64,000 bases of DNA from TPA_inf: Saccharomyces (GCA_000146045.2 BK006945.2:1-64000), one strand, 5' to 3'. Shown: positions 5,661-36,361, counted from the stretch's first letter. The notes: generated by a model from the sequence alone, not told the origin. Made by a program: numbers and translations.

Positions 5661-5725
5661 ACACCACACCCACACACCACACCCACACCACACCCACACC
5701 CACACACACCACACACCCACACACT
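5661..5725. repeat. Internal telomeric (C1-3A/TG1-3) tract between the two Y' copies
   Basis: 'acaccacacccacacaccacacccacaccacacccacacccacacacaccacacacccacacac', flanked by Y' end sequence on both sides. Confidence 0.85.
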
Positions 5726-6119
5726 CTCTTACATCTACCTTTACTCTCGCTGTCACACCTTACCCGGCTTTCTGACCGAAATTAAAAAAAATGAAAATGA
5801 AACCCTCTTCTTTAGCCCTACAACACTTTTACATAGCCCTAAGTAGCCCTCATGTACGTCTCCTCCAAGCCCTGTTGTCTCTTACCCGGATGTTCAACCA
5901 AAAGCTACTTACTACCTTTATTTTATGTTTACTTTTTATAGATTGTCTTTTTATCCTACTCTTTCCCACTTGTCTCTCGCTACTGCCGTGCAACAAACAC
6001 TAAATCAAAACAGTGAAATACTACTACATCAAAACGCATATTCCCTAGAAAAAAAAATTTCTTACAATATACTATACTACACAATACATAATCACTGACT
6101 TTCGTAACAACAATTTCCT

Positions 6120-9473: not shown

Positions 9474-9527
9474 CGTAAGCTCGTCAATTATTTTTGAGAG
9501 CCGCGGTCATTTTGTTAGTATCTCTTC

Positions 9528-11195: not shown

Positions 11196-11358
11196 ACACC
11201 ACACCCACACACCACACCCACACACACACACCCACACCCACACCCACACACACACACCCACACACACCACACCCACACACCACACCCACACCCACACCAC
11301 ACCCACACACCCACACCCACACACCCACACCACACCCACACCCACACACACCCACACA
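11196..11358. repeat. Internal telomeric C1-3A tract at the Y'/X junction
   Basis: ~160 bp of irregular 'ccacacc/cacacac' repeats between the Y' end and X-element repeats. Confidence 0.9.
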
Positions 11359-16638: not shown

Positions 16639-17613
16639 TTAGGAGTATTTATCTACAGCTGATGCAATTTCGGCGATATCTTTAGGAGACGTTCTACAAC
16701 AACCGCCAATAATGCGCGCACCATTATCAACGAATTTCTTAACCGTGGTCTCCCAGTCATCCAACTTATTAGTCGGCCGGTGCCATGTCTTCTCTTTGGG
16801 ATTGTAGATTTCTCCACTGTTTGGGTAAACTAGCAGAGGCATGCCAGGTAGATGCTCGTGCAACATTTTAAGAATTAATGCCGATTGATTGAAACTGACA
16901 CAGTTAACTCCCATTAATAAGAGATTCTTGTTAATTTTATTTCCGAGGCCTTTTATATGGACAGAAATTTCTTCCAAAGTGGTACCGTCTCGTAGCAAAC
17001 TATTGTCATCCACCGACAACCCAATATAAAAGGGCTTCGAAATAATATCTTCATCCCAGGATAAAATAGCCTTTAACTCATGAAAATTTGGAATCGTTTC
17101 AAAACCAATAAGATCAATATCTCTATTTTGGTTGAAGTTCTCCAGCTGGGGTTTGAAAAAGCCGTAGTAATCAATATTCTCAGGATGGGGACCATAGTCA
17201 CCAGTATATTCACAGGATACATGTGCTGCCCATGGGCCAATACTCCCGATTAAGTACCTTTCCTCACCAATAAATTCACGAGTAAATGACACGATTTTAT
17301 CGAGAAAACGCTTGTAAGCAGCCAGAGTTTTAATCGAGGTATTCTCAGATATGCTTTGAAAGTTTGCCTGGTAAGTAATTGTCATTAATATGTTTGCGCC
17401 AGCAATCATAAAGTCTCTGTACATTTCTTCTACCACCTTTCGCTCTTGAGAAGATGGCTCCCAAAAGGATTCGCTCGTAAAAGGAGCTGCAGACCATACC
17501 GGACTATTTATGTTAATGCCTCTGTTTTCCAATTCTGTACCCTGTCCACCATCAAGGATAAGAACTTTTCCGGGGTGCTCAACTATTAGTTCTTTGATTG
17601 GAATGCGCTTCAT
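16639..17613 (-). CDS. MHT1: S-methylmethionine:homocysteine methyltransferase (324 aa from ATG at 17611..17613)
   Basis: Homocysteine S-methyltransferase fold signature (GGCCRTSP near the C-terminus). Codon 17641..17643 is GTG, so the start is moved to the first ATG. Divergent partner of MMP1. Confidence 0.85.
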   Translation of the reverse strand: MKRIPIKELIVEHPGKVLILDGGQGTELENRGININSPVWSAAPFTSESFWEPSSQERKVVEEMYRDFMIAGANILMTITYQANFQSISENTSIKTLAAYKRFLDKIVSFTREFIGEERYLIGSIGPWAAHVSCEYTGDYGPHPENIDYYGFFKPQLENFNQNRDIDLIGFETIPNFHELKAILSWDEDIISKPFYIGLSVDDNSLLRDGTTLEEISVHIKGLGNKINKNLLLMGVNCVSFNQSALILKMLHEHLPGMPLLVYPNSGEIYNPKEKTWHRPTNKLDDWETTVKKFVDNGARIIGGCCRTSPKDIAEIASAVDKYS

Positions 17614-17783
17614 CTGTTTTTTGATTACTTTTTCAAGTTGCACACTAAAAGTTGCTGATTCAGATTTCTTCTACAACTTGTCTGTTTAAATTATCTTCCT
17701 TAGTAGTACATTTTCAAATTGGCGTTGTTGCTGTTTTGCTATTACCATTGAATACCTCGCCACAATTTGGTAGTACTTTCATG

Positions 17784-17810
17784 CCACAGTTTTTACTTTT
17801 CCACAGTTCC
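17784..17810 (-). promoter_or_regulatory. Two Met31/Met32-type motifs (AAAACTGTGGC and GGAACTGTGG, read on the - strand) in the MHT1-MMP1 divergent promoter
   Basis: + strand 'ccacagttttt' (17784..17794) and 'ccacagttcc' (17801..17810) are reverse complements of AAACTGTGG-type sites. The location is the intergenic region of two sulfur-regulated genes. Confidence 0.45.
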
Positions 17811-17955
17811 TGCAGGAATGGCTTTTTTTCATTAACTTTTTGCGGGGATAGCGAAGAGATGCCAGGAAATAAATGCGTATATATTTTACAGATTTGGGTG
17901 GTTAAGTAATCACCGTCAAGAGTTCTCCATCAGGATACCATGAAAGATACCCGAA

Positions 17956-19707
17956 ATGGATGAATTTGAATCTACCAAACTTTCGAAGGTTCAGTTTTCC
18001 ACTAGCGTGTTAAGTACGCCTTCGAATGAAGGAAATAATCTAATACACAGATTCAAGAACTCTTTCAAGCGAAATGATTCACCAGCGATCCAAGAAGGTT
18101 TGCTGTATTCGGAGCTTTCAGAGGAAGAAAAAATACAATGGGACTTAGCCAACCAGCCGTATAAAAAGGTCCTAGATCAAAGACACCTGACCATGATAGC
18201 CATTGGAGGTACTCTAGGGACGGGTCTTTTCATTGGTTTAGGGGAATCACTAGCGTCCGGACCTGCTTCTTTGCTAATTGGTTTCTTGTTGGTCGGCGCA
18301 TCTATGCTCTGTGTTGTTCAGTGTGGGGCCGAACTTTCATGTCAGTACCCTGTTTCCGGCTCCTATGCGCTGCACGCCAGTAGATTTATAGACCCATCAG
18401 TCGGCTTCAGTATAGGAATTAACTACTTATTGATGTGGCTCATATCTTACCCTAGCGAGCTGGTAGGATGTTCGCTTACCATCTCTTATTGGGCACCATC
18501 GGTCAATCCTGCTGCCTGGGTTGCAATCGCGTTCGTTTTAAGCATGCTATTGAATCTTTTTGGGGCAAGAGGCTTTGCAGAATCAGAGTTTTATATGTCA
18601 ATTTTCAAAATTGTGGCTCTATTCATTTTTATAATTATTGGTATTGTTCTCATTGCAGGTGGTGGGCCTGATTCTACTGGATACATCGGCACGAAGTATT
18701 GGCACGATCCAGGCTCCTTCGCTGTTCCTGTTTTCAAAAACCTCTGCAATACTTTTGTTTCGGCAGCATACTCCTTTAGTGGTACAGAAATGGTTGTTTT
18801 AACCAGCACTGAAGCAAGGAGTGTTTCCTCAGTCTCTCGGGCAGCGAAAGGTACGTTCTGGAGAATTATCATCTTTTATATTGTTACAGTGATTATAATT
18901 GGTTGCCTGGTCCCTTATAATGATCCTCGTCTGATTAGCGGTTCATCCAGTGAGGATATTACTGCTTCCCCGTTTGTTATTGCCTTGAGCAATACTGGTG
19001 CTATGGGAACAAGAGTGTCTCATTTTATGAATGCGGTCATCTTGATAGCCGTATTTTCTGTTTGCAATTCCTGCGTTTACGCATCCTCTAGATTGATTCA
19101 GGGTTTGGCGACAGCAGGCCAACTTCCAAAGATCTGCGCTTACATGGACAGGAATGGTCGGCCTTTAGTTGGCATGGCTATATGTGGCGCTTTTGGATTG
19201 TTAGGCTTTTTGGTTGTTTCCAAGAACCAGGGTACAGTTTTCACATGGTTGTTTGCGTTGTGTTCCATTTCATTTTTCACAACTTGGTTCTGTATTTGCT
19301 TCTGTCAAGTCAGATTTAGGATGGCAATGAAAGCTCAAGGAAGGTCAAAGGATGACATTATCTATAGATCGACATTAGGGATATACGGAGGAATTTTCGG
19401 CTGTATCTTAAATGTTCTATTGGTAATTGGAGAAATATATGTATCGGCTGCACCCGTGGGTAGTCCCAGTTCTGCTGCTAATTTCTTTGAATATTGTATG
19501 AGTATTCCCATAATGATTGCTGTATATATTGGCCATAGAATTTACCGCAGAGACTGGAGACACTGGTACATCAAGCGGATGGATATTGACCTCGATAGCG
19601 GACATTCGTTAGAGGACTTCGAAGCCACCAAGCTTGAGAGGGATGAGGATAAGAAATACGTTTCCTCTAAGCCACTTTACTATAGGATCTATCGGTTTTT
19701 CTGTTAA
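17956..19707 (+). CDS. MMP1: S-methylmethionine permease, amino-acid permease (APC) family, 12 TM (583 aa)
   Basis: Translation is a typical yeast AAP, with TMIAIGGTLGTGLFIGLG... ATG verified at 17956. Confidence 0.85.
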   Translation: MDEFESTKLSKVQFSTSVLSTPSNEGNNLIHRFKNSFKRNDSPAIQEGLLYSELSEEEKIQWDLANQPYKKVLDQRHLTMIAIGGTLGTGLFIGLGESLASGPASLLIGFLLVGASMLCVVQCGAELSCQYPVSGSYALHASRFIDPSVGFSIGINYLLMWLISYPSELVGCSLTISYWAPSVNPAAWVAIAFVLSMLLNLFGARGFAESEFYMSIFKIVALFIFIIIGIVLIAGGGPDSTGYIGTKYWHDPGSFAVPVFKNLCNTFVSAAYSFSGTEMVVLTSTEARSVSSVSRAAKGTFWRIIIFYIVTVIIIGCLVPYNDPRLISGSSSEDITASPFVIALSNTGAMGTRVSHFMNAVILIAVFSVCNSCVYASSRLIQGLATAGQLPKICAYMDRNGRPLVGMAICGAFGLLGFLVVSKNQGTVFTWLFALCSISFFTTWFCICFCQVRFRMAMKAQGRSKDDIIYRSTLGIYGGIFGCILNVLLVIGEIYVSAAPVGSPSSAANFFEYCMSIPIMIAVYIGHRIYRRDWRHWYIKRMDIDLDSGHSLEDFEATKLERDEDKKYVSSKPLYYRIYRFFC

Positions 19708-21137
19708 CTTAGTGAAGTACTTCATTTGAATATTAATTAATAATAATTTTATGAGCCGGGAATTTTGCATCTATATTCTAGGTTTCTAGCAACCGTAGTT
19801 TTACGTAAGATGTATTTTTTTTTGAATATTCCGTTTTAGAATGATATTCTAGGCCCTGTATATTCTCCAATAACAGCGGCACGTCCAGGTTCTGTGACAA
19901 TGCTAATATATTCCTTTTTTTTTTTTTTTTAACTTAGTATACGCTGTATTGGAATCAGTGATTTCATCTAAGTTTACTAACGCTTACACAATTGTGGAAG
20001 AAGAGGATAGAAACACCTCAGATCCCCTTGTTACGGTAAAACCCCTATTCTATGCCTCAGTAATAACTAGAAATAGCCGATTATCATTATGTTAAGCCTG
20101 TCGATACGCATTACAGTTCAAAAAAAAGGCGGACATCGTGGTTGATATTTGTTTGAGGCCTTAAATTTTATTGTATTACATGTATAAATAGCTAACAACA
20201 TTTGTTCAGTTGGTACCAATCACCTTTGTTGCTGGGTATCCGCACACATTAACAAGACAATGGAAAAGGGAGAAAACTAACAATCTTAAACGATAAAACC
20301 GGACGAAATAACAGCTGTTATTTTTCATGCTAGAACTAATGGCTTGATAGTATACTTGTACCTTGTATCTTAGTGCTTGAACGGATGATTCCCGTCGCCC
20401 CACACCTATGCATACAAGACGTCAATCTTCCTGTGATTATATTTTGAGTATGGCGTAGTAATCCCATATTTCTCGTTGGGTGGTGCTGATATTTGAAAAT
20501 TCATGACCTGTTCTACATACGGCTGCCATTGGTAGGACCGCAATCACAGTGTAATTTTGAAGAACTTACATTGGGCCAATGGATGAGCTGTGACCATAAT
20601 TTATTAGTTGTTTGTGTCACAAGCTCAGACTTAGAAGTTCTCTATTGCAAACATTATTTCATGTTTCCTTAAATTTTTTTTATTGCACCAACTTTAGTGA
20701 CCCCTTGTGAGCTCCAACATATTTGAAATCTTCTTAAATTTCTAGTCGGCAAGCAGCAAAGAATTTCAGTAGTAATCTCTACCGCGGCAATATCGATGCA
20801 AATGTAACTACCTGTAAGGATATTGTCTTCAGTGGTTTGGTATGGTTTTGTACCTTACTCAACATCACGAATAAAAAGGAAGGAATACGAATCATGATAT
20901 TGATGTTTAATCTTTCACCGTCAAACAATTAACATATATAGTATATATATTCTTTTATAGAATACTGCTTGAGCTATTTTTTTACTTGACAGAATGGCGC
21001 CGCGAAGAACCCCTAAATTTTGTAGCCCTAATTTCGATCAGTTATATATAGCTATGGCACCCTCTTGAATAGCTTCATGATTGGATCTTTTTATATAGTT
21101 TCCACGTACCACGCAAAACTTGTCTCAAGTAGCCACT

Positions 21138-21839
21138 TTACGAGGATTTTGAACGGATTTCTAGCAGTTTCTTCACGCTGGGGCGCTGTTGCATTCTCTT
21201 ATACCAAGCTCGAAGCGCCTCGCACTCTTCCGGCACTTGTAGTTTTACAATTGCAGCAAATATTAGACCAGCTATTACTGTGATGTCAGCCATTGAGAAT
21301 GAATCACCAGCAACATATGGGCGTTCTCTGAGAACGGTATCAAAATAATGCATTCCATGTAGGGCTTTGTCGCGCTGGCGAAGTCCCCACTCTTTGTTTT
21401 GGTAAAGCTCGACTTCAGGCCCCAATCCAGGTGTAGCATGGTGAAAATAAACACTAACAGGGTCGAGCAGTTCCAACTCTGCGCGTTTGTTCATCATGTG
21501 GATTACGCCTTTTTCCAGCGGTGTTTTGCCGGTAAGAGTGGGTGTACCATCAAGTGCATCAATGTATTCAGTAATGGCTGTGCATTCAGCGATTAAAGTC
21601 CCGTCATCAAGTTCAAGCACTGGCACTGTGCCTGAATAGTTCTTGGCAAGAAATTCAGGCTTCTTGTGCTCTCCCTTCCAGAGGTTGATCCTCACAAATT
21701 GCACACTTGATAGCATGTTCTTCTCAGCCAAGGCAATGCGGACTCGGGCCGGATAAGGCCCTGCGGGTGTGTCATATATTATCATTTTTTGTTTCATCTT
21801 TTCACCTCCATTGTAAATCAGGAAACCTCTGCCATTCAT
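21138..21839 (-). CDS. GTT2: Glutathione S-transferase (233 aa)
   Basis: GST N-terminal thioredoxin-like and C-terminal domains. ATG verified at 21837..21839. Confidence 0.8.
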   Translation of the reverse strand: MNGRGFLIYNGGEKMKQKMIIYDTPAGPYPARVRIALAEKNMLSSVQFVRINLWKGEHKKPEFLAKNYSGTVPVLELDDGTLIAECTAITEYIDALDGTPTLTGKTPLEKGVIHMMNKRAELELLDPVSVYFHHATPGLGPEVELYQNKEWGLRQRDKALHGMHYFDTVLRERPYVAGDSFSMADITVIAGLIFAAIVKLQVPEECEALRAWYKRMQQRPSVKKLLEIRSKSS

Positions 21840-22612
21840 GTATCCTTTGTAGGTACTTTATATAGAGCACCAAGTTTCTATCCTTTAGCAGGAAGCACAT
21901 TATTAATCATTTGAGACGTAAACGAATGAATTAGTAAGCAGTGAAAGAAATTCGAGCACTAAGCGCGACCTAAGGGAACGGACACGGAACGGAGAAACTG
22001 AAGTATCAAATACTTCCATTTGATCAAACCACTTGTATCCACTCCCTGTTTTGCACACGGTAGTAGAAGGTCTTTTGAATATTTACTGTAAATACCGATT
22101 TCTATGTCCTTCTTGTCCGATTATAGGATTCGGGTCATTTCCAGCGCCTACTTTCCTTCTTGATTTCAAAATGTGTGGTTAACGTACTCCCAATTGCACT
22201 ACTGTTCCTACAGTTCACGCGCACCTCTTTCTGATGAAAATGCAGCTGCATTAATCTGCGATCTATTGGCATCTCGCTCTTGTATCTGCCCTCCATTCGT
22301 GAAATTTTACTCTATTACCATCTTTGATCATTTTTTTGTCGCAAATGTGATACGGCATCCATCGAATTTTGCTCGTAATTGTTTGCCATTATCGCCCTTT
22401 TCATTCCGTATTATTCATCCACTCCGCTTCATAATGGGTTCCAAAAAAAGAACTATTGTACGAGCTTTTAGACTCACGAAAACATTACTTGAACAATAAT
22501 TAGCGCCTGCAGAACTTGACATAATAAAATTCCATTTTCGATATCTAGCTGTCTGAAGATATGATATCTAAGTAATACGGGAAAGTTTCCGCTATTATTC
22601 TCTGTTGCAAGC

Positions 22613-22628
22613 TCACGTGAAAATGTGG
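22613..22628 (+). promoter_or_regulatory. Cbf1 site TCACGTGA directly abutting a Met31/32-like AAAATGTGG, between GTT2 and YLL058W
   Basis: 'tcacgtgaaaatgtgg'. This is a perfect palindromic CACGTG core with the T/A flanks preferred by Cbf1. Confidence 0.4.
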
Positions 22629-23568
22629 ATTCGCGAGTGGGGTGTAAGTGAGGATTGCCAAGCCTTTTGTTCGAAAACTTCTGCAGGAAGCGTTGTGTTG
22701 CAAGGATGATGCAGCATGAAATATGTGTTTTCTTTTTTTCGAGGTTCACTCCTACAGGTGATTCCTTCGAGAAATTCTGCAACCCATTGTGATATGATGC
22801 CTGGCCGAAAGATTTCTTCATTTCTTCGGAGCAGGTTCGGCCCGAAATCCTCATGATCGAGCCGAATGCCAAGAAGTAAAACACCAGGATGACTAACCAG
22901 TTATTATCATGTGTATACAGTACTTTGGTACCTTTATCAAGAAGTATACTAAAATATACCAACACCACACACATGCACATGGTAGCTGAGCGAACAGTTT
23001 CGAGATTTCAGCATTAATTTCATCTAATAAGACTTTCCGTCTGCTTTCAAGATCAACGTGCTGAACATTTTTACTCTGCTTTCATAATACTCCCATTTTA
23101 GGCTTTGATTCAAAAGCCCACTCAATGCAATACCTAAAATGATATCCTTCAAAGATATGTTTAATGAATATGCAGCCACAGCTTTGAATTCAGATTGACC
23201 TTGTGTTGCATTAAGTCAGACACCTCTAGATTTGTGTGGCTGCTCTCAAGAAAGGATGTTGAAGAAGATTTATTTACGGAAGAAATAACTGTATACGGCA
23301 TTTTATTCTTTCTTAAACGAGCAAATTAAAGAATAGACGGATAGAGACTGGAGCTTTAGCATGTGTTCCGAGAAGTCCTTGACACGCGCCACGGTTGTTA
23401 TGCCGCACACTACAATGATGTGTTTGAAAAAGTATATTAATGCCTATTGTCAAGATGCAATTCATCAATTCCAGCATTGAGTGATTCTTCTCTGGTGCGG
23501 TAAAACATAAATTTTAAATCTAGTACTCAACCACCACTGAACAACTATTAATCATCGTGGAAATTATT

Positions 23569-25296
23569 ATGACGGAAATTGAATTTGGGCAACCCCTTCC
23601 CAGCAATCTAGACTATGCTGTTTCTTTTGGCATTCCTACATGGGATTCGGCAATAGGCTATGCGGAAAAGGTGCCAGAGGTAATAGGCAAAATGGCTACA
23701 GGATATCCGAGGTACTTTCCTCAACCCCCCGTCCAGAGGCTTTGTGCTTACTTTGTTAAGAAATTTGGGCGAGGTTCAGAAAACTGTCGTCCTTTTCCAT
23801 CCGTTAACCTGGGTTTAAAGTGTTTCGAGTACGTAAAATCTGTCTCAGGACCTGAAAGTAAAGCTCACCTTGAAGTGGAAACAGTTACGATTAAAAACCG
23901 TGGGGCAAAAACGTCGAAAGAACCGGCGGAATTGGTGCTAACCATTGCTGCTGTCCTTGCATCGGAGGAAGAGTTCGAGACTGTGAAAGAGTATTGGAAA
24001 TTAAGAGGTGAATGTGTATCTAGTCGATTGGCGTTGTCTGTCAACCAACTTCTTGACTGCGCTAATCATGGCTCAGAGCAGGTATTGCGTGAGCTAGAGG
24101 CTGGTGTTTTTGCAGCAAAGAAGGGGGAGGAGAAAGCAAAGAACCTGATAAAGGGAAGGATAGTTGAGAATCGCTTCAGGCCCTTTGGTTTGGAGAAGAA
24201 AACCCCGAATTGGGAGGGACTCAACCTCAACCCAAATGAAGACGTTTATCTTGTATCAAGTGGCATGTCTGCAATATCTACGGCTCGTAATTTACTCACC
24301 TTTTGGGAGGAGAAGAAGAATTCAGGAGATTCATTAAACAAGACCACCTCTGACCAAAAGAAAAAGCCATTATTATGTGACACTGTTGGCATCTTCGGCT
24401 TCCCTTTCAAAGATACGCAGGTCATTATGACTAAATTTGGAAAATGTAAATTTTTTGGATTTGGAAATTCTAGAGACGTTGTCGAATTACAAAAGTTTTT
24501 AGAAACAAGCAAACAACGCATTCTTGCCGTTTTCGTCGAGACACCTTCAAATCCTCTGCTGAATATGCCGGATTTGAAAAAATTGAGGAGTTTGGCCGAC
24601 CAGTATGGCTTTTTTATTGTAATTGATGATACTATTGGGGGCCTTAACGTTGACATCTTGCCCTATGCTGATATAGTCAGCACGTCCCTGACTAAGCTTT
24701 TCAATGGTGCTAGTAATGTAATGGGCGGCTCTGTCGTTTTAAATCCGAAATCATCTCTGTATCCATATGCTCGTGAGTACTTCAGGAGCGCTAATTTCGA
24801 GGATTTGTTATGGTGTGAAGATGCGATAGTTTTAGAACGTAATTCCAGGGATTTTGAAGATAGAACTTTACGTGCTAATGCAAACACAGGAATATTGTTG
24901 AATGATTTGCTTTTACCCGAGGAGGGGAAAATATGCAAAAAGATTTATTATCCAACTGTTACTTCTAAGGAGACCTTTGAGAACTACGAAAGTGTACGTA
25001 ATGAACGTGGTGGCTATGGATGCTTGTTCTCTGTAGCCTTTTTCAATGAGGGCGATGCAAAAGCATTCTATGACTCTTTAAAGGTATTCAAGGGACCTTC
25101 TAATGGTACTAACTTTACCTTAGCATGTCCATATGTCCATCTGGCGCACCACTCAGAATTAGAAGAAGTTTCCAAGTTTGGGGCCGACCCCAACATTATT
25201 AGAGTAAGCGTAGGTTTAGAAGATATCCAGTGGTTATTGAAAGTTTTTTCAAGTGCTTTAGATGTTGTGAAAAGCAGAGGCTCCAAACACTCATGA
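23569..25296 (+). CDS. YLL058W: PLP-dependent cystathionine gamma-synthase-like protein (Cys/Met metabolism PLP enzyme family), 575 aa from the first ATG
   Basis: The track ORF starts at GTG (23557); the first ATG is at 23569. It has the family's TKLFNGASNVMGGSV PLP-lysine region. A paralogue of STR2/YML082W by memory. Confidence 0.8.
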   Translation: MTEIEFGQPLPSNLDYAVSFGIPTWDSAIGYAEKVPEVIGKMATGYPRYFPQPPVQRLCAYFVKKFGRGSENCRPFPSVNLGLKCFEYVKSVSGPESKAHLEVETVTIKNRGAKTSKEPAELVLTIAAVLASEEEFETVKEYWKLRGECVSSRLALSVNQLLDCANHGSEQVLRELEAGVFAAKKGEEKAKNLIKGRIVENRFRPFGLEKKTPNWEGLNLNPNEDVYLVSSGMSAISTARNLLTFWEEKKNSGDSLNKTTSDQKKKPLLCDTVGIFGFPFKDTQVIMTKFGKCKFFGFGNSRDVVELQKFLETSKQRILAVFVETPSNPLLNMPDLKKLRSLADQYGFFIVIDDTIGGLNVDILPYADIVSTSLTKLFNGASNVMGGSVVLNPKSSLYPYAREYFRSANFEDLLWCEDAIVLERNSRDFEDRTLRANANTGILLNDLLLPEEGKICKKIYYPTVTSKETFENYESVRNERGGYGCLFSVAFFNEGDAKAFYDSLKVFKGPSNGTNFTLACPYVHLAHHSELEEVSKFGADPNIIRVSVGLEDIQWLLKVFSSALDVVKSRGSKHS

Positions 25297-25755
25297 AGCA
25301 GATCATGAGTAGAATATCAAAAATCAAGAATTCTTTATAATCTTTATAGAATATTGTTTATAAAAGTTTTTTTCCATTCTAGCATATAATTTTTTTGGAG
25401 GAAGTCTTTTCTGGAACCTTCACATGGATCTTAATTAATGAAAGTAGACAGAGCTCATAAGATCACTAGTTGTTTATAAACTGAAGATGTTCCTTCTTAT
25501 TGACTTCAACATTATATCGCTCTGAATTAGTTGATCTGTAACTTCAGAGTTTCTTTACCAGAATAAAAGCGTCACAGTTTTTCTTTAGTTTATATGTACA
25601 CAGGTTGGGGTTTACTATAAACTATAAAAAAGAAGTGTTGTCGCCGCTATTTTAAGGTTTATACACAATTTTAACCAAAAAAAAGAATAAGTTGAGCAAC
25701 GTTGGAACTGCCTCTGCAACGAATTCCGGCTATATACAACCTGCATCTTTGAAAT

Positions 25756-26994
25756 TCAAATATCCAAAGTTAATGAAGAAGGATAATAATTTTCATCATT
25801 CAAAAACTTTAGATCTTCCACGGGCCTTTCCGCTTGTGGAGTAATCCTGAACGCATGTCTGTGAATTGGTTCTTCCCAATCAATCACTGCTGAATGTTGA
25901 ACTCTGCGGTTATCCCAAATGACGACGGAATGAGGTTCCCATTTGGCTCTTAACTGTAAATCATGGCTGCTCTCCACTAGATTGTACAAGAAATTCAAAA
26001 GTGATTCAGATTCTTGTCTTTTCAATTCGACTATTTTCCTAGAAAATGCACGATTGACATACAAGCATTTCTTTTTCAAGACAGGATGAACTCTGACCAG
26101 TGGATGAATATGCGTGACAGGTGCTCTTCTTTTTATGCCGCCCTGGCGCTGTGAATTCTCTGCCTGTTCCTTTGAGCTATGGATGACATGAAGCGTGCTC
26201 AAGAAATCTTGCAAAGGCTTCGACAACCTGTCGAAAGCCTCGATCGTATCCGCAAATAACGTATCTCCACCACCATCAGGACCTTCAACAACACTAAAGA
26301 AAGTATAAGAAGGTGGCTGTAACTCGTAAGAGACGTCTGTGTGCCAGCCACCAGATGATGTCGAGTCATCAAAAACTCTTGCAAATTCTTCCGCATCAGG
26401 TCTTCGGAAAGTGATATGCAGCTCAGGATTGTTTTGAGGGTGGCCACTAGTTTGATGAATGTGCAACTTGCCAAAATGTCTTCCGTATTCAGTCACATAA
26501 TCGGGTCCCTCGTCAGCAAAATTCTGATTTCTAAAGACAACTACTCCCTTTTGGGCGACAAGCAAAGCGAGTTCATCTTTTGCAGCATCAGAAAGATCAG
26601 TTAGCTGGATCCCATTGATCTCGAGACCTAATTTCGGGGTGATCTTCTTCACCTTTAGTTGACCAACGTTTTCTTTTGCAAAAAGGTTTGAAAAGTTACC
26701 GTCAGCTCTCAAAGCAGGATCATGGTATTCGTGAAATTCCAGCGGGCCATACTTTTCAGTAGGATCCCATGTAGGCAAATAATCTGGATACTTCGATTTC
26801 TCTCTATAAGATTTACGGATTTTCAATAAACCAGATGGAGAGACCTCATCTTGGCCATCATAAAAATGGGTATCAAAATTCCCGTAACCTTGCTTGGAGG
26901 TATAATTCAGGTTTTTCAACCCATTTGTAATGATTTTGACTGGTAAATCGGTAGATGGAAGAGGGATTGCTGTTTGAGCTGCTGCAGGAGACAT
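25756..26994 (-). CDS. JLP1: Fe(II)/2-oxoglutarate-dependent sulfonate dioxygenase (TauD family), 412 aa
   Basis: TauD-like translation (HxD...H motif context 'GGWHTDVSYE'). ATG verified at 26992..26994. Confidence 0.8.
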   Translation of the reverse strand: MSPAAAQTAIPLPSTDLPVKIITNGLKNLNYTSKQGYGNFDTHFYDGQDEVSPSGLLKIRKSYREKSKYPDYLPTWDPTEKYGPLEFHEYHDPALRADGNFSNLFAKENVGQLKVKKITPKLGLEINGIQLTDLSDAAKDELALLVAQKGVVVFRNQNFADEGPDYVTEYGRHFGKLHIHQTSGHPQNNPELHITFRRPDAEEFARVFDDSTSSGGWHTDVSYELQPPSYTFFSVVEGPDGGGDTLFADTIEAFDRLSKPLQDFLSTLHVIHSSKEQAENSQRQGGIKRRAPVTHIHPLVRVHPVLKKKCLYVNRAFSRKIVELKRQESESLLNFLYNLVESSHDLQLRAKWEPHSVVIWDNRRVQHSAVIDWEEPIHRHAFRITPQAERPVEDLKFLNDENYYPSSLTLDI

Positions 26995-27408
26995 ATTTTA
27001 ACTGGGTTACTGTGCTATGTTTGTACAAGTATGAAAGGGCCGATTATACAGCAATAGTACACCTTTTTATATGTTTCTGTCATCAAGAACTGTTACTGAC
27101 TCCTTAACTTTTCCAGCATTCTTGTTGTATTGCCTACATACCTTCTTTATGTTAGTAGTATGATAAATAAACTCCATGTGCCCTGTGGCGCCAAATAAGA
27201 AATCGACTCAAGCCACATTGAGGCTTTTGTCATCATTCCCCTATATACTAATATAGCACCTTTCCAAGGGCCAAGAGCTCGTCCAATGAGACGCATGAGT
27301 TGGGTATTTTAAGCTGCACAGTAGACTATATAGATAAAGCTAACTAGTATGTAAAAAACGTTACATGCTATGGCGCTCTTAGAAAAAACGCATAATATAA
27401 GCTTCAAG

Positions 27409-28305
27409 TCAGTTTAAGCTATAGTTCGCACGGATATCTTCAAGAAGACCGATTTGTTGTGGCTGCCATCCCAGCTCTTTTCTGGTACCTTCGCTTGAAA
27501 CTGGGCCATCTCTAGTGACAAAACAAGTGAGGAAGCCAAAATGACTTTCCGCGTCATCAACAGGGATAGAGGCCACGGGAACATTCAAAATTTCTCCAAT
27601 CACACGCGCAATATCTTTGAATGGTATACCTTGTTCACCAACGCAATGATACACTTGTCCTGTTTTTCCTTTCTCTAAAACAAGTCTGAACAGAGGAGCC
27701 GTATCCAAACGATGTACAGCCGCCCAAGCGTTTGTGCCTTGTCCGACATAGCCAGATTTTCCGGCAGCTTTGGCAATATTCATTAATATTGGTACAAAAG
27801 CCTTGTCCCCCTTGCCATGAACCGAGAATGGGAGTCTGACAATTCTTGCTGAAACACCTTTGTCTTTGTAACTCAAGGCAACCTGTTCAGTGACAGCACG
27901 CAAAATTTTGGAATCTTCATCAATACCATCCTGTTCGTTAGCAACTTTGTTTGGTCGCAAAGAAAGTGTACCATTCGTATATAAGAAAGGCTTGTTAGAA
28001 CCTTTAAGTGACTCTAGCATAGCTACAGTGGCCTGACGGTCAATTTCGCAGCACTGTTCAAAATTTTTAAAATCATGCACAAATCCTAAATGAATAACGC
28101 CATCAGATTCAGTGGCACCTTTTTTCAAAATTTCCAGATCCTTGAGATCACCGCGAAGGATTTTTGCAGCAGGATCAATCGACTTAATCTTTGCAGCAGC
28201 CTCGTCTGACCTTGCCAAGCCAACAACTTCATGACCCGAGGATATTAGTTCAGATAATACGGCAGAACCAATGAAGCCAGAAGCACCAGTTATAAATACT
28301 TTCAT
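27409..28305 (-). CDS. YLL056C: NAD(P)-dependent epimerase/dehydratase (short-chain dehydrogenase) family protein, 298 aa
   Basis: N-terminal Rossmann motif MKVFITGASGFIGSAV. ATG at 28303..28305. Confidence 0.75.
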   Translation of the reverse strand: MKVFITGASGFIGSAVLSELISSGHEVVGLARSDEAAAKIKSIDPAAKILRGDLKDLEILKKGATESDGVIHLGFVHDFKNFEQCCEIDRQATVAMLESLKGSNKPFLYTNGTLSLRPNKVANEQDGIDEDSKILRAVTEQVALSYKDKGVSARIVRLPFSVHGKGDKAFVPILMNIAKAAGKSGYVGQGTNAWAAVHRLDTAPLFRLVLEKGKTGQVYHCVGEQGIPFKDIARVIGEILNVPVASIPVDDAESHFGFLTCFVTRDGPVSSEGTRKELGWQPQQIGLLEDIRANYSLN

Positions 28306-29353
28306 TTTTTGATCTCTTTTTTATTTTCTTTTGTAAAAGTTGAGTTATCACGCCTTAGCGCTTATGAATACAAGAGTGATTGTAAGCATAGTTGATAGAA
28401 GCGGGAGCCGTTATTTATACGTTAGTTGAGTACTTGAGGGTCTTCATCGCCTACTTTTTTTCCTTAATATCCTTGTGTTAGTAATCATATCTTCAGGAAA
28501 GCCAAGAACTAATGGCAAATTAAATCCGCGGCTTTCCCTTTAAACTTTTTCCAGCACAATCTATTATGTTGAGAAGTTCCGCTAATTTCCGCATTGGAAA
28601 AAGAATCTCATCTGCAAAAACGATGGTTTCTTTCTTCCACGGAAGACTTATGTCCGTCCTCTCTATTTTCATATTGTTCTTTCTCTCTCTTTTTGCATAA
28701 CGTCACAATACCCTAGTGCTACCGTCATTGGCGCAGCATAAGAGTATTGCATTTCATGTCTTCAGATTTTGCCTCGCGAAAGAGAAAACACTAAGAGGTG
28801 AAAAACAATAAAATTATGTTCCAGTGTGTCATACGTGAGGTTTTATCACGGGGCCACCGTTCTCATTGGTTACTTGGTTGTAAATGCTTTGCGTTGTGAT
28901 AAATATATGGCATGAAAAATCATATGACTTCAAAAATGAACAGATTCCAGATGCCAAGCCCGCTTTCCTTCGGCTAACTAGATGCGCGCTCGCCCTTGAA
29001 ATCCTTAATCAGCACAACTCAATTGTATGGACGTGAGCTCTGACTTTTGCTTCCGACAATTAGGCCTTTCATATCTGTCCTTCTGAGATGTTATGTATCA
29101 TGCATTTTGTATACACTATGCAACACCCTTCGCAATGGCGAAAGCGGAAAGTCATGGCACCATCAATCGTGCTCTGACCAGTATGTAAAAAATTTCTTAA
29201 GCCTCACCATGTTACAGATTGGCCAGAGCATCTGGATATTCACCACACCTGATTGGGAAGACTCATAGTTTTATGAAAGATTTCTTCAGAAAAAATGACA
29301 TGCTGATTTTGTCTACTTGCGTGTGCTTTCAGTTCTTTACCAGTACGATTTGG

Positions 29354-29361
29354 TCACGTGA
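29354..29361 (+). promoter_or_regulatory. Cbf1 site TCACGTGA in the YLL056C-YCT1 divergent intergenic region. A Met31/32-like AAATTGTGGC lies at 29419..29428.
   Basis: 'ggtcacgtgacacgcg' and 'aaattgtggc', about 750 bp upstream of YCT1. Confidence 0.4.
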
Positions 29362-30108
29362 CACGCGATCAACTACATTCAATCCATCTGCCCCTTGCTG
29401 GTTCCGAGTATCAATTCTAAATTGTGGCTACCACTATAGCAATAGTACGCCAAGCTCGGATGCAAATCACGGATATCTTCTTAGCATCCGAGTTCAACAT
29501 CCGAGTTCAGCATCCGAGCTTTGCGGCGAAAACTTAACAAGATAACGGATAATCAAAGTTCTCTGTGATGTTACGGAGTCTTTGGTCTGCGCTGCTGACT
29601 AAAATAGTGTGACACAACGTACATAGCGCCACCCATATTGGCCGATAAGGACCAGACTTGTGGCGATGACTGTTAACTCTCCGCGAATCTTTTTCGAAGT
29701 CGCAGGTGGCATTGCAGAAACAAAAATGTGTGGCTTCTGAAAAAAAAAATAGGCACCCCATTTGATGTAAGACATCTGGCTACCCCTTGTACATTTCAGT
29801 CACTGAGCATCGAAGGCACGTCTTTGCAGCATGCAATAGTGTTCGAAGTTCTTCCATTTACGGTGGCTCCCCTCACTGGAACGGTGATGTAATATGTAGA
29901 TAGCTAAAACATTTCGCAGGTCCCTAGGAACTGGACGTCAAGATGAATAGGTATTGTTAAAAATGCGTACCTGTTGAATTGAAGAGGTCGGAAAAATCAA
30001 AGTACTTAAACAGACGATTGATTCGACATTTAGCTATTCAGGTTGCACTTCTTGAAGGTTGAACAAAACATCAAGAGAAAATAAAAAAGAAAATATAACA
30101 AAAAAGAA

Positions 30109-31704
30109 ATGTCAAAAGTTGACGTAAAAATTGGAGCAGACTCGATCTCCTCTTCTGATGAAATCCTAGTTCCTTCGAGACTCGCTGATGTTACGCTAGC
30201 ATTCATGGAGGAGAATGACGCAGCAGTTCCAGAAATCACGCCTGAACAAGAAAAAAAATTAAAGAGAAAGCTTTTTCTCACAATATTCACCTTTGTCTCT
30301 GCCATTAACCTTTTACTTTACATGGACAAAGCCACTTTATCCTATGATTCGATTCTAGGCTTCTTTGAAGATACAGGTCTTACCCAAAATACTTACAATA
30401 CTGTAAATACGCTGTTTTACGTTGGTTTTGCAATCGGCCAATTTCCTGGACAATACTTGGCTCAAAAGTTACCACTTGGGAAATTCTTGGGTGGGTTGTT
30501 GGCCACATGGACTATACTTATTTTCCTAAGTTGTACCGCATACAACTTTTCCGGTGTCGTTGCGTTGAGATTTTTCTTGGGGCTAACAGAGAGTGTTGTT
30601 ATCCCGATATTAATTACCACTATGGGTATGTTCTTCGATGCTTCAGAAAGAGCTGCTGCTCAGCCATTTTTCTTTGCAGCATGTATGGGGTCTCCAATTC
30701 CAACTGGGTTTATTGCTTATGGTGTTCTTCATATAACAAATCCCAGCATTTCGTTATGGAAAATATTCACTATCATCATTGGTGGTTTGACTTTTATCAT
30801 GACGGTTGTTGTAATTCTGTGGTTTCCTAATAATCCTGCTGATGTGAAATTCTTTTCAATACAAGAAAGGGTATGGATTATCAGGAGAGTTCAGGCATCC
30901 ACAGGCTCTTCCATTGAACAAAAAGTCTTCAAAAAGAGTCAATTCAGAGAGGCAATGAAAGATTATATAACCTGGTTATTTGGATTGTTTTTTCTTCTTC
31001 AACAGTTAGCCAACAATCTGCCCTATCAACAGAACCTGCTATTTGAAGGAATGGGTGGAGTTGATGCTCTAGGTTCGACATTGGTATCAGTTGCCGGTGC
31101 TGGTTTCGCCGTCGTTTGTGCCTTCATCGCTACGTTGATGTTAGCAAAATGGAAAAATATTTCAGCTTTAACAGCCATCTTTTGGACTTTACCAGCATTG
31201 GTGGGATCCATCGCTGCAGCTGCTTTACCATGGGACAATAAGATTGGTATCTTAGCAAATATCTGTATGGCAGGACAAATATTTGGTATTCCTTTTATTA
31301 TAGCTCTTAGCTGGGCAAGTTCAAGTGCATCTGGGTACACCAAAAAACTCACAAGAAGTTCGGTGTCCTTATTTGCGATGGGAATTGCTAATATCATATC
31401 ACCACAAATATGGAGAGAGAAGGACTCTCCTCGCTTTTTACCTGCCTGGATTGTTCAAATCGTTTTATCATTCTCTCTTGCACCAGCCATTTTGTTACTG
31501 ATCCATTTCATACTAAAAAGAAGGAATAATCAAAGACTAAAAAATTATGACGAAAATTTACAAAATTATTTGGACAGAATTCAACTCATTGAAAGCGAAA
31601 ATCCTTCTTCCATTGAAGAAGGGAAAGTGGTAACCCACGAGAACAATTTGGCAGTCTTTGATTTGACTGATTTAGAAAACGAAACTTTTATATATCCTTT
31701 GTAA
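30109..31704 (+). CDS. YCT1: High-affinity cysteine transporter, MFS (Dal5 allantoate-permease subfamily), 531 aa
   Basis: Multi-TM MFS translation. ATG at 30109. Position matches YLL055W. Confidence 0.8.
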   Translation: MSKVDVKIGADSISSSDEILVPSRLADVTLAFMEENDAAVPEITPEQEKKLKRKLFLTIFTFVSAINLLLYMDKATLSYDSILGFFEDTGLTQNTYNTVNTLFYVGFAIGQFPGQYLAQKLPLGKFLGGLLATWTILIFLSCTAYNFSGVVALRFFLGLTESVVIPILITTMGMFFDASERAAAQPFFFAACMGSPIPTGFIAYGVLHITNPSISLWKIFTIIIGGLTFIMTVVVILWFPNNPADVKFFSIQERVWIIRRVQASTGSSIEQKVFKKSQFREAMKDYITWLFGLFFLLQQLANNLPYQQNLLFEGMGGVDALGSTLVSVAGAGFAVVCAFIATLMLAKWKNISALTAIFWTLPALVGSIAAAALPWDNKIGILANICMAGQIFGIPFIIALSWASSSASGYTKKLTRSSVSLFAMGIANIISPQIWREKDSPRFLPAWIVQIVLSFSLAPAILLLIHFILKRRNNQRLKNYDENLQNYLDRIQLIESENPSSIEEGKVVTHENNLAVFDLTDLENETFIYPL

Positions 31705-32672: not shown

Positions 32673-35204
32673 TCAAAAGTTACTCAGGTTAGGGAAAATT
32701 CCAAGTAGCTTATCAAGATCAATTGCCATTAGTTGATTCAAGGCTTCATTGTCATAATTCATGAGGTCAATTTCACTCTGTAAAGATTCGTCAACATCTT
32801 CAGTGAAGTTTCTGGAAAATTCTTGTGCGGAAATGAGTTTTTCTAATTCTTCCAAAATCTCCAAATCAAGACTTCCCAAGAATTGTGGATTGTTTAATTT
32901 TGATGTGAACGAAAAGGACTTATCCCTTCCCATACCCCATTTTAAACCGACAATCCTATGGATTCTTGAATATCTTTCATCCATAACGGCGTCACTCTTC
33001 CAGTAGTCGGATATAAACGCAGACAGCGCGTCAGTATCCACCAAATAAATGATATACCTGAAAATAGAGACAGAAATGAACGAACCGAGATAACTCTTTT
33101 CCAGTTTCGAGATAACAATTTCTACAAGTAATTTCATATGATATGACATCAACTTGATCATTTTTTCAATGACTCGACTAAGTCTTCCGTTTCTATCATT
33201 CAACATTCCCATGGCTGCAGAGGATCTGTCGCATGTATCCTTCTTATAAAATAATCTCACGAGCAAGGTGGCCTGGAATATGAGTAATCGATGTATCGAA
33301 AAGCGAACAACTTTCTGAGTGGCAAACCCAAAAGGTTCCCGTAAATGCAGAAGAGATCCATTAAAGTATTCCGAGATTAATTTTAGCAACGTTAAATAAT
33401 CTTGTATAGCGGTAAAAGTAAAGCGGTGATAATATGTTTTGTACTCCAAAGCGTTTTTGAAACATTGATTTTCAAAATGCAAAGATAAGCTATCATAGAT
33501 GTTCATTGTACAAGTGTAGCTAATCACATTAGCTATGAATGTTTCATTTTCCTCAAAAGTGCTAAAGTCAAAAGATTCTTCATTTGCTAAGGAAGAGGGA
33601 ACATTGATATGTAAGCTCTTCATCCTTGGTTCTCCAAGAGAACTTAAAATGAGAGGGAATTTCTGATTTAAAAAATCTTTTGTCTTGTCGATGTTATCCA
33701 ATACTTCCTTCAAGTAGGAAGGGCCATTTATTGGAAAACAAGAAGTCAGTAATACCTGTAAAGATAAATGTAAATGATAGATATTCTCTGCTGTAGCCAT
33801 CAACGATAAGTCTAGATTATTAGTAGAAGCGTAATTTCTCTCAAATAGTTCTGGTAGAGATTCGTCAGTTTTCATAAAGGATCTTAAATATTCCAAACTT
33901 AGAATGTCAGAATCTCCTTCTGGAATCAATATTCCAAACTTCAAAAATTGCACGCCAAGCCATAATTTCCTTCTTAAATTGAATAATCTTGGATAATCGT
34001 CCGATTCGCTGACGTATCGAGTGTATTGGAAGGGTTCTTCATTCAGTCCTAGCTTTATTGCTACATTCTCCAAAAATTTTAGGTTTAGTATGTCACTGTG
34101 AGTAGGATACATGTCAGCTTGATCTGGATTCAAATACCGCAATATGAAAAAATAGAGCAGACAACAAAGTGTATGTTCATTAACATATTGAAAAACGTTC
34201 ATGAGAGCAAGAAGTTTATGAGCGAGTAGCGTTAAATTATTCGATTTTACACCAAAAGATTCTTTAAATGAATGACTAGTACTTAGACTCAAACGTCTGT
34301 AAGAAAAAGCCAATATGATAGTTAGCAGTGTTATTGTCTCCAGTTTTCTTCTAGAGTCTTTGCCCGCAAATACAATGTTATACCCATTAAATTCATTCAA
34401 TTGCAACAGCTCCCTTATGTTATCTTCGAATAATGATATTTCCAGTAACGGATAGACCGGATATATTGTTTTGTAAAAGTCCACGATTAAGCCATCAACC
34501 TCATTCTTATTGAGGAAATATTTGGATAACTCTTCCAAAAGGATGTTTATGGAAATTTTATCATTATTTTCTTCAGGATGCGCTTGTTCATAATCATACG
34601 TGTTATACAGAAAATCTATTGGAGGATACAATTTGCTTGTTTTTGAGGTATTTTCAATAAATTTAAGTGCAGCTTTATCAATAAAAAACAAAGGTCCAAT
34701 ATCACCGATTGTTAAGTTAAGTTCTCTTTTTTTATTGTTGGCAGAAACGTTTTCACGATGGCGTTCGACATCAATCAGTATCCTCTCATGTATGCAGGTG
34801 GTCAAGGCCTTCGCATACAAATCATGTTGAAGAATGCTATGGAAGGCAAAAGGACTATCAACGATGGTTGTGTTATTCATTACAACAAGCTTGTCGTGTG
34901 CATTCGATAAATTCATGGCAAAATTTTTCATTTCCCAGTCTTTAGTACTTGGATTAAGTATGGAAGTAAAGGAACCACTTGCGGACATCGATGCAGGAGT
35001 AATGTTTCTAATGTCTCTATGTGGGGCATTTTCGATAGTGGGAGATTTGTTAATCCGTCCTGGTTCCACTTCGTAGCTACAAATCGAGGATGAGGCCTTG
35101 CATTTGGAGCAAGTAGGCCAAAGTTTATCACATTTGATTTTCCTTTGCTTACACCGCAAGCAAACAAACGATGGCTTAACCTTTTTCTGAGATGCAATGC
35201 TCAT
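32673..35204 (-). CDS. YLL054C: Zn(II)2Cys6 zinc-cluster transcription factor, 843 aa
   Basis: N-terminal CLRCKQRKIKCDKLWPTCSKCKASSSIC binuclear cluster plus a fungal transcription-factor middle domain. Confidence 0.8.
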   Translation of the reverse strand: MSIASQKKVKPSFVCLRCKQRKIKCDKLWPTCSKCKASSSICSYEVEPGRINKSPTIENAPHRDIRNITPASMSASGSFTSILNPSTKDWEMKNFAMNLSNAHDKLVVMNNTTIVDSPFAFHSILQHDLYAKALTTCIHERILIDVERHRENVSANNKKRELNLTIGDIGPLFFIDKAALKFIENTSKTSKLYPPIDFLYNTYDYEQAHPEENNDKISINILLEELSKYFLNKNEVDGLIVDFYKTIYPVYPLLEISLFEDNIRELLQLNEFNGYNIVFAGKDSRRKLETITLLTIILAFSYRRLSLSTSHSFKESFGVKSNNLTLLAHKLLALMNVFQYVNEHTLCCLLYFFILRYLNPDQADMYPTHSDILNLKFLENVAIKLGLNEEPFQYTRYVSESDDYPRLFNLRRKLWLGVQFLKFGILIPEGDSDILSLEYLRSFMKTDESLPELFERNYASTNNLDLSLMATAENIYHLHLSLQVLLTSCFPINGPSYLKEVLDNIDKTKDFLNQKFPLILSSLGEPRMKSLHINVPSSLANEESFDFSTFEENETFIANVISYTCTMNIYDSLSLHFENQCFKNALEYKTYYHRFTFTAIQDYLTLLKLISEYFNGSLLHLREPFGFATQKVVRFSIHRLLIFQATLLVRLFYKKDTCDRSSAAMGMLNDRNGRLSRVIEKMIKLMSYHMKLLVEIVISKLEKSYLGSFISVSIFRYIIYLVDTDALSAFISDYWKSDAVMDERYSRIHRIVGLKWGMGRDKSFSFTSKLNNPQFLGSLDLEILEELEKLISAQEFSRNFTEDVDESLQSEIDLMNYDNEALNQLMAIDLDKLLGIFPNLSNF

Positions 35205-35502: not shown

Positions 35503-36361
35503 TCAGTCTTCCTTCTTTTGACCTGCCGCCTTTTCGGCATTAACGTATGTAGTGTAATCAAGGATTTGTAATAATTGCCACACTGACCAGGCTAAGAAGG
35601 CACCCAAAAGTGGGCTAATCCAGTAGATCCAGTGGTAATGAGGGAAATATCTGGCAGCAACGGCGGCACCCAGAGATCTTGCAGGGTTGACACCGGTACC
35701 AGTGTAACCGGTCAAAGCCATGTGAGCCATGAATAAAGAAATACCAATTGGAAGCGCAGCCATAAAGTTAGTTTCACGTTTTTCAACAGCAGTCATCAAA
35801 ACTGTTAAACACAACACAGCAGTACCAAACATTTCCAAAAACAACCCCCTAGATCTGGAACAGCCTAAACCCAAAGCATTAGTAAAGAGAACCTTGCCTG
35901 GAGTCATAGCACTAGCGGCACCACCAGCAGCCATCCCAGCAATGATCTGAGGAAACCACATCACTACACATCTGGCTGGTGAGATGGCTCTGGCCAAACA
36001 CAAAGAGAGAGAAACGGCTGGGTTCAAAGCCCCACCAGAAACACCAGATAGAAAACATCACAGAGAAACCGAAACCAAGGGCAATCATGATCAATTGACC
36101 TGGATGAGAGCCCTCAGGCTCGGTTGTCAAAGCCACATCATGGTTAGCGACATTACAAATGACGTAAGCACACCATAAAAACATGAAGGTACCGCAAAAC
36201 TCACCCACAGCAGCGATAAAGTGGTTTCTTAAGGTATCTCTGTCAATATTAAAACGCGAATGCTTCGTTTCCGGCTGTTCAGGTGGAATATAAGCATTGT
36301 CAACACCGGTCGGGTCCAAGTGCGAAATGTTTTTTTCAAGGTCGTTAGATTCGTTAGACAT
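35503..36361 (-). pseudogene. AQY2: Aquaporin AQY2, disrupted by an 11-bp deletion. It is split into a YLL052C N-terminal fragment (35912..36361) and a YLL053C C-terminal fragment (35503..35961/36027).
   Basis: Two overlapping minus-strand ORFs. The upstream one reads ...[15 protein letters not shown], then goes out of frame. The +1 frame resumes with SGGALNPAV (first NPA box) and NPARS (second NPA). About 11 nt are missing relative to an intact aquaporin between GFGFxVM and SGGNLNPA. Confidence 0.85.

Follow-up and report, generated by a model that had tools for sequence, protein, structure and literature searches.

The stretch of DNA analysed here, hereafter the window, comprises the 64,000 nucleotides at the left end of Saccharomyces cerevisiae S288C chromosome XII, with the telomere outward, and contains a cluster of seven genes, five of which belong to the Met4 sulfur regulon. 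Telomeric C1-3A repeats occupy positions ~1-75. Behind them come two tandem Y' elements, each with the same helicase-type open reading frame (ORF) of 1117 amino acids (aa), at 585-3938 in the first and 5535 bp further on, at 6120-9473, in the second. The cluster lies beyond these elements, 16.6-31.7 kb from the chromosome end, and is thus subtelomeric, as an earlier note made on this DNA had proposed. Its seven genes are as follows.

16639-17613, minus strand: MHT1, S-methylmethionine:homocysteine S-methyltransferase, 324 aa from its ATG; Pfam S-methyl_trans (PF02574), E = 5e-62; exact match to MHT1_YEAST
17956-19707, plus strand: MMP1, S-methylmethionine permease, divergent from MHT1; AA_permease, E = 1e-114; exact match to MMP1_YEAST
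21138-21839, minus strand: GTT2, glutathione S-transferase (GST); Pfam GST_N and GST_C; exact match to GST2_YEAST
23569-25296, plus strand: YLL058W/HSU1, homocysteine synthase dependent on pyridoxal phosphate (PLP); Cys_Met_Meta_PP (PF01053); exact S288C match
25756-26994, minus strand: JLP1, Fe(II)/alpha-ketoglutarate-dependent sulfonate dioxygenase; TauD, E = 5e-59; exact match
27409-28305, minus strand: YLL056C, atypical short-chain dehydrogenase/reductase with aldehyde reductase activity, in tandem with and directly upstream of JLP1; Pfam Epimerase and NAD_binding_10; exact match
30109-31704, plus strand: YCT1, high-affinity cysteine transporter; Pfam MFS_1; exact match to YCT1_YEAST

The identities given in the earlier note agree with these assignments for all seven ORFs, each of which falls into its expected Pfam family, with the sulfur-related families as named, and matches a known protein exactly. 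Exact look-ups of nine ORF products from the window all returned S. cerevisiae S288C proteins by name. The mechanically called MHT1 ORF extends past the ATG to a GTG at 17643. YCT1 is an MFS transporter of the Dal5 type. For YLL058W, the exact S288C matches are named either "Homocysteine/cysteine synthase" or "cystathionine gamma-synthase". The earlier description of this protein as a cystathionine-gamma-synthase-like PLP enzyme is right as to the PLP family, but the enzyme has since been characterised as the homocysteine synthase HSU1 (PMC9757880), which fixes sulfide onto O-acetylhomoserine (PMC9757880; PMC10729969).

For the dependence of these genes on Met4 and Met32 and for their enzyme activities we draw on the literature. 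Met4 and Met32 raise the expression of YCT1, JLP1 and HSU1 two-fold or more, and each of the three promoters has TGTGGC; YCT1 induction requires both factors (PMC3408425). The induction of MHT1 and MMP1 needs Met31/32 (PMC3408426). Hsu1, Mmp1, Jlp1 and Yct1 are raised under sulfur limitation and are part of the Met4 regulon (PMC9757880). Jlp1 functions as a sulfonate dioxygenase (PMC5303821; PMC5857272) that converts sulfonates to sulfite and an aldehyde (PMC5857272).

The promoters of the cluster are in accordance with this regulation. We assembled 4288 bp of promoter-bearing intergenic DNA (the regions between MHT1 and MMP1, between GTT2 and HSU1 and between YLL056C and YCT1, together with the JLP1 promoter) and, as a control, 2857 bp of convergent, terminator-only intergenic DNA, and used 5000 dinucleotide-preserving shuffles as the null. 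The Met31/32 core TGTGGC occurs nine times in the promoter-bearing set against 1.5 expected, a roughly six-fold excess that none of the 5000 shuffles reaches, and is absent from the terminator-only set. All four promoter-bearing regions contain two to three such cores, the promoter sign by which regulon membership was judged. The palindromic Cbf1 site TCACGTGA is present in two copies, at 22613 and 29354, and only 6 of the 5000 shuffles have at least two. The motif scan gives the following sites.

17759-17792, minus strand: two Met31/32 cores in the 342-bp divergent promoter of MHT1 and MMP1, GCCACA at 17759 and GCCACAGTTT at 17783, the latter being the reverse complement of AAACTGTGGC, the full Met31/32 consensus
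22613-22620, unstranded: Cbf1 site TCACGTGA between GTT2 and HSU1, within the spurious ORF 22474-22980
23175-23240, unstranded: two Met31/32 cores 394 and 334 bp upstream of HSU1
27184-27217, unstranded: pair of Met31/32 cores in the 414-bp JLP1 promoter
29354-29734, unstranded: YCT1 upstream regulatory block, with Cbf1 site TCACGTGA at 29354 and Met31/32 cores at 29423, 29659 and 29729

These positions are largely kept across Saccharomyces. Both cores between MHT1 and MMP1 are position-conserved in S. paradoxus and S. mikatae and are gone in S. kudriavzevii, the species with an MMP1 pseudogene. The HSU1 promoters of S. paradoxus, S. mikatae, S. kudriavzevii and S. uvarum each have one or more cores 320-396 bp ahead of the gene, and the region upstream of HSU1 in Torulaspora delbrueckii likewise bears Met31/32 cores. 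Neither the spacing of the JLP1 pair nor its distance from the gene changes in S. paradoxus, S. kudriavzevii, S. eubayanus and S. mikatae. Ahead of YCT1, each of the five other Saccharomyces species has three to five cores, similarly placed. The Met31/32 half of the earlier note's claim that the genes share Cbf1 and Met31/32 motifs is thus borne out by enrichment, control and conservation alike. The Cbf1 half holds in part: the site is found in two of the four promoter regions, but is not common to all and is conserved in some species only. S. paradoxus and S. kudriavzevii have a CACGTG core at a distance similar to that of the 22613 site, S. mikatae and S. uvarum lack it, and the Cbf1 core upstream of YCT1 recurs, among the other Saccharomyces, in S. 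eubayanus only. Since class-3 genes of the Met4 regulon do not require Cbf1 (PMC3350556), a missing Cbf1 site is no bar to regulon membership.

As a metabolic cluster we count at least three adjacent, non-homologous genes with one function. The locus has five adjacent or near-adjacent genes (MHT1, MMP1, HSU1, JLP1 and YCT1) from five Pfam families, whose products all feed the homocysteine/methionine/cysteine pool by parallel entry routes. The yeast genome has about 6000 genes. The core Met4 regulon comprises 45 genes (PMC3350556). By our own arithmetic from these numbers (45/~6000 genes), at least four regulon genes in any seven adjacent genes are expected less than 0.001 times genome-wide.

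The remaining two genes, GTT2 and YLL056C, have Met31/32 cores more than 1 kb from their start codons. For GTT2, the distance from the start to the nearest core is ~1.3 kb; closer to the gene, 92 bp upstream at 21931, stands a Yap1-type TTAGTAA. GTT2 has been recorded with a Cbf1 site (PMC3408426) and is tied to the Met4 cluster just through a citation in PMC3350556. The proximal promoter of YLL056C has, instead of Met31/32 cores, a Yap1-like TTAGTAA at 28478 and TCCACGGA at 28636, which resembles a pleiotropic drug response element. YLL056C is an aldehyde reductase whose deletion strain is glycolaldehyde-sensitive (PMC11878538), and it is reported in the literature to be induced by hydroxymethylfurfural along with pleiotropic drug resistance and Yap1 genes; a literature search for YLL056C tied to sulfur regulation or to induction by Met4 or Met31/32 found none. 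Both genes appear to respond mainly to stress regulators. Of the seven sulfur genes claimed in the earlier note, five (MHT1, MMP1, HSU1, JLP1 and YCT1) are therefore backed by Met4/Met31-32 evidence in the accessible literature but GTT2 and YLL056C are not, and the defensible count is five sulfur-regulon genes with two embedded stress or detoxification genes.

The tandem arrangement of JLP1 and YLL056C nevertheless hints at a link through aldehyde detoxification. Cleavage of isethionate yields glycolaldehyde and sulfite, and YLL056C, which is active on glycolaldehyde, could, speculatively, clear the aldehyde co-product. This coupling remains speculation because S. mikatae does without YLL056C and the gene pair of Zygotorulaspora mrakii described below lacks it. 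A literature search for joint mentions of YLL056C and JLP1 found none.

On the gene identities, the enriched and conserved motifs and the synteny observed here, together with the published regulation and activities, we consider it very likely that these genes make up the already described S. cerevisiae cluster on chromosome XII-left that scavenges sulfur from alternative sources. In this reading, the five genes are independent transcription units whose promoter Met31/Met32 sites recruit Met4 when sulfur or methionine is scarce. Two of the intergenic regions add a Cbf1 site, and according to the literature Met4 recruitment involves Cbf1/Met28 at some promoters. Mmp1 brings in S-methylmethionine, which Mht1 uses to turn homocysteine into methionine, and Yct1 imports cysteine. 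Jlp1 frees sulfite from sulfonates, for example isethionate and taurine, and Hsu1 joins the resulting sulfide to O-acetylhomoserine to give homocysteine. Together, these parallel salvage routes supply one common pool. The salvage island proposed in the earlier note agrees with the published view (PMC3350556; PMC9757880). We infer that the clustering itself has been selected, for example through co-inheritance or a shared subtelomeric chromatin state.

Comparison with other yeasts reveals how stable the arrangement is. We collected homologues of JLP1, HSU1 and YCT1 with their genomic contexts (numbered with an L below) and then searched with the window proteins by tblastn. The gene content at the corresponding loci is as follows.

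S. paradoxus: all seven genes, the centromere-side neighbour YLL054C and an intact aquaporin gene, collinear
S. mikatae: without GTT2; YLL056C reduced to a C-terminal relic
S. kudriavzevii: without GTT2; MMP1 decayed to a pseudogene
S. uvarum and S. eubayanus: divergent GTT2 and HSU1, and JLP1-YLL056C-YCT1, kept; a three-gene insert between HSU1 and JLP1; MHT1 and MMP1 missing at the locus
T. delbrueckii: four genes in a row close to a chromosome end, YCT1-like (48% identity), HSU1 (68%), MMP1-like (65%) and MHT1-like (65%)
Z. mrakii: a divergent pair of YCT1 and JLP1
T. globosa: JLP1 and HSU1 ~20 kb apart, with a flavin mononucleotide-dependent monooxygenase of the NtaA/DmoA family and a flavin monooxygenase between them
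Z. rouxii: HSU1 alone
Lachancea fermentati: HSU1 beside a GST gene non-orthologous to GTT2

Among the species examined, the complete seven-gene set is confined to S. cerevisiae and S. paradoxus, and the HSU1-JLP1-YCT1 core is retained in all six Saccharomyces species. The comparison across yeasts suggested in the earlier note therefore recovers the seven-gene form in S. paradoxus, but finds it incomplete in the other Saccharomyces. A location near a chromosome end is shared by the orthologous loci of S. paradoxus, S. kudriavzevii, S. uvarum, S. eubayanus, T. delbrueckii, T. globosa and Z. rouxii; in the S. mikatae assembly used, the cluster is ~68-90 kb from the chromosome end. The insert of S. 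uvarum and S. eubayanus (L008, 13467-21344, and L003, 12355-20225, respectively) encodes two MFS transporters, one of 637 aa that carries the name "glutathione exchanger" in S. eubayanus and one of 540 aa and DHA2 type, together with a Zn2Cys6 factor of 555 aa. It resembles a lineage-specific addition to the sulfur cluster that brings a regulator of its own. Some S. cerevisiae strains have fragments with >90% identity to the 637-aa protein.

Outside Saccharomyces, the four T. delbrueckii genes are on the same strand at the right end of chromosome E (L010, 6734-16465). The MMP1-like and MHT1-like genes are candidate orthologues either of MMP1 and MHT1 or of their paralogues SAM3 and SAM4, and the position of HSU1 next to such S-methylmethionine-type genes fits the proposed role of HSU1 in S-methylmethionine metabolism (PMC10729969). 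A glutaredoxin gene is close to this block (L010, 1467-1793). In T. globosa (L009, 3073-6604; L004; right end of chromosome A), the NtaA/DmoA match scores 443 bits against a cutoff of 280, and JLP1, the monooxygenases and HSU1 may form a different organosulfur-oxidation cluster. A conserved divergent pair of GTT2 and HSU1 in Lachancea was considered and rejected, the L. fermentati GST having just 21% identity to GTT2 (E = 0.06).

Variation is also found within S. cerevisiae. Clusters of proteins at 90% identity reveal truncated MMP1, HSU1, YCT1 or MHT1 alleles in many strains. MMP1 is split into products of 178 and 387 aa in CEN.PK113-7D, Kyokai 7 and roughly 200 contigs, and the other truncated forms measure 343 and 403 aa for HSU1, 460 aa for YCT1 and 91 aa for MHT1. 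The cluster genes thus appear to segregate as pseudogenes in the S. cerevisiae population. Overall, the cluster is real and partly ancient, yet fluid: a fast-evolving mosaic with sub-modules older than the whole-genome duplication.

The divergent YCT1 and JLP1 genes of Z. mrakii (L002, 6303-11239; right end of chromosome C) are unusually close to those of Saccharomyces, and their intergenic region contains four Met31/32 cores. At 82% (JLP1) and 80% (YCT1), the identity of the Z. mrakii proteins to their S. cerevisiae counterparts compares with 83 and 89% for S. eubayanus and with 66-75 and 53-56% for Lachancea and other yeasts of the Zygosaccharomyces/Torulaspora group. A further JLP1 copy in Z. 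mrakii has an ordinary 65% identity, and so does Z. mrakii HSU1, which serves as a control. In neighbour-joining (NJ) trees with bootstrap and limited taxa, Saccharomyces and Z. mrakii are sisters with 96% support for JLP1 and 100% for YCT1. Their YCT1 genes fall, again with 100% bootstrap, into a rare clade set apart from the mainstream Saccharomycetaceae homologues, together with one of the two L. lanzarotensis copies and a gene from the yeast assembly ENA ERZ2634569. In the latter (L013, 5964-11710), the gene of the rare subtype is 68% identical to S. cerevisiae YCT1 and divergent from an OPT-family transporter; no JLP1 was found near it in the L013 context. OPT is the family of the yeast glutathione transporter. 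Recent horizontal transfer of JLP1 and YCT1 between Saccharomyces and Z. mrakii was rejected, because four-fold degenerate sites have reached saturation: S. cerevisiae and Z. mrakii agree at 36-41% of them, the value also seen for T. globosa. Owing to this saturation, any exchange must be ancient, and it would look the same as slow vertical descent with paralogue loss.

Several points weigh against reading the locus as a sulfur-scavenging cluster. In the accessible literature, sulfur regulation is shown weakly for GTT2 and not for YLL056C, and the genes do not make one linear pathway. Membership is unstable, with GTT2, YLL056C, MMP1 or both MHT1 and MMP1 lost among Saccharomyces, and the truncated alleles argue against strong selection for the complete seven-gene set. 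In addition, the exact published gene list is taken second-hand. Subtelomeres might simply gather dispensable, condition-specific genes, whose adjacency would then have no functional or selective meaning. Such passive accumulation would suit the rapid turnover between Saccharomyces species and the truncation within S. cerevisiae, the separate promoter and motifs of each gene, the two of seven genes in other regulons and the coincidental GST-HSU1 neighbours of L. fermentati. Nonetheless, we regard it as unlikely, considering the genome-wide expectation of less than 0.001 for four or more Met4-regulon genes among seven neighbours, the recurrent linkages in T. delbrueckii (four genes), Z. mrakii (divergent JLP1 and YCT1) and T. 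globosa (JLP1 and HSU1 within ~20 kb) and the two further Met4 clusters elsewhere in the genome (PMC3350556).

Another view, which we hold only tentatively, is that the cluster was built from older sulfur modules of two to four genes moving between yeast subtelomeres, one of MHT1, MMP1 and HSU1 and one of divergent JLP1 and YCT1, with at least the latter exchanged between a Zygotorulaspora-like lineage and the Saccharomyces stem. The high identity of Z. mrakii YCT1 and JLP1 relative to other genera, their bootstrap support, the rare YCT1 clade of Saccharomyces and the ordinary HSU1 control all point this way, but saturated four-fold sites make an ancient exchange resemble slow vertical descent with paralogue loss, the NJ trees have limited taxa and are without model-based tests, and the Zygosaccharomyces/Torulaspora group is already the expected sister of the post-duplication yeasts. 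It seems rather doubtful that the cluster is a mosaic of older mobile modules (the Torulaspora block of YCT1-like, HSU1, MMP1 and MHT1 genes, and a JLP1-YCT1 pair shared specifically with Z. mrakii via ancient exchange or rare-paralogue retention) and that, at the same time, YLL056C is functionally coupled to JLP1. Clustering could also be the regulatory mechanism itself, a shared subtelomeric state silencing the block when sulfur is replete. The position 16-32 kb from the telomere and a report that MET genes associate in three dimensions upon activation (bioRxiv 10.1101/2023.12.27.573430) are compatible with this idea, but the sequence does not demand it: each Met4-dependent gene has its own conserved Met31/32 sites, and the S. 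mikatae cluster is far from its chromosome end, which makes co-regulation through a chromatin domain very unlikely in our judgement. A cluster for scavenging alternative sulfur sources, with separately controlled genes, remains the favoured explanation.

The cluster is flanked by AYT1 on the telomere side and by a Zn2Cys6 factor gene on the centromere side, whose membership in the cluster is uncertain.

32673-35204, minus strand: YLL054C, uncharacterised Zn2Cys6 transcription factor; Pfam Zn_clus; exact match

YLL054C is syntenic in S. paradoxus and S. mikatae; no orthologue was seen within the flank examined in S. eubayanus, and no functional data on the gene were found in the literature. Further inward, at 35503-36027, a 174-aa aquaporin-like ORF with an NPA motif is present, and an intact 289-aa MIP-family gene occupies the syntenic spot in S. 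paradoxus (L005, from 21264). Judged from this intact counterpart, the S288C aquaporin gene appears to be interrupted. An ORF of 168 aa at 22474-22980, in the gap between GTT2 and HSU1, was considered as an eighth gene and rejected; it has no Pfam match, contains the Cbf1 site and is most likely promoter DNA. The Y' region (window 1-12000) also has 271-aa ORFs at 3993-4808 and 9528-10343. In the window, Rfam at gathering thresholds gave zero matches and a tRNA scan found no genes. A repeat search of 12-36 kb yielded two weak A/T-rich inverted matches only, with no long terminal repeats or duplications to account for the cluster.

The co-localisation, the Met4 control and the salvage interpretation are already published. 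Zhang et al. 2001 and Lee et al. 2010 are the studies cited for the chromosome XII-left cluster in PMC3350556 and PMC9757880. Yu et al. 2022 termed the locus a "regulon-like gene cluster", and Carrillo et al. 2012 treat the co-localisation, citing Lee et al. PMC3350556 analyses "the GALMET4 chromosomal cluster genes" and refers to the papers on GTT2, JLP1 and MMP1 as well as to Lee et al. 2010. HSU1 has also been placed on one chromosomal segment with MMP1 and MHT1 (PMC10729969). In locus, genes and interpretation, the published cluster differs in nothing essential from the one described here, to which we add motif statistics, motif conservation and cross-species synteny. Since the cluster has been described since 2001-2010, its confirmation by itself changes nothing and gains little; the added value is modest and comparative.

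Similar arrangements are found in yeast and in bacteria. The other two Met4-activated clusters are, we presume, BDS1/YOL162W-YOL164W at the left end of chromosome XV and SOA1 (YIL166C) at the left end of chromosome IX. Both lie outside the window and, like the present cluster, consist of alternative-sulfur genes that depend on Met4/Met32 and have TGTGGC promoters (PMC3408425; PMC3350556), but they differ in their genes, which encode a sulfatase and a sulfonate/sulfate transporter. In bacteria, the tauABCD and ssuEADCB systems, which respond to sulfur starvation, likewise join uptake to a sulfonate dioxygenase of the TauD family (PMC5857272), although they are polycistronic operons under CysB/Cbl, whereas each yeast gene has its own promoter. 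The confirmed sulfonate transporter of yeast, SOA1, sits on another chromosome (PMC5303821).

A parallel in organization is also offered by a cluster for another nutrient. The DAL allantoin-utilisation cluster of S. cerevisiae, reportedly treated by Wong and Wolfe 2005, consists of separately transcribed nutrient-scavenging genes in divergent pairs, includes a transporter of the Dal5 family, to which YCT1 also belongs, and was assembled by gene relocation. The DAL genes form one linear catabolic pathway and their cluster is stable across species, whereas the sulfur cluster comprises parallel routes, takes in two genes from other regulons and has members that come and go between sister species. 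The locus is a model example of how budding yeast, although poor in metabolic gene clusters, groups accessory scavenging genes in its subtelomeres under one regulator.

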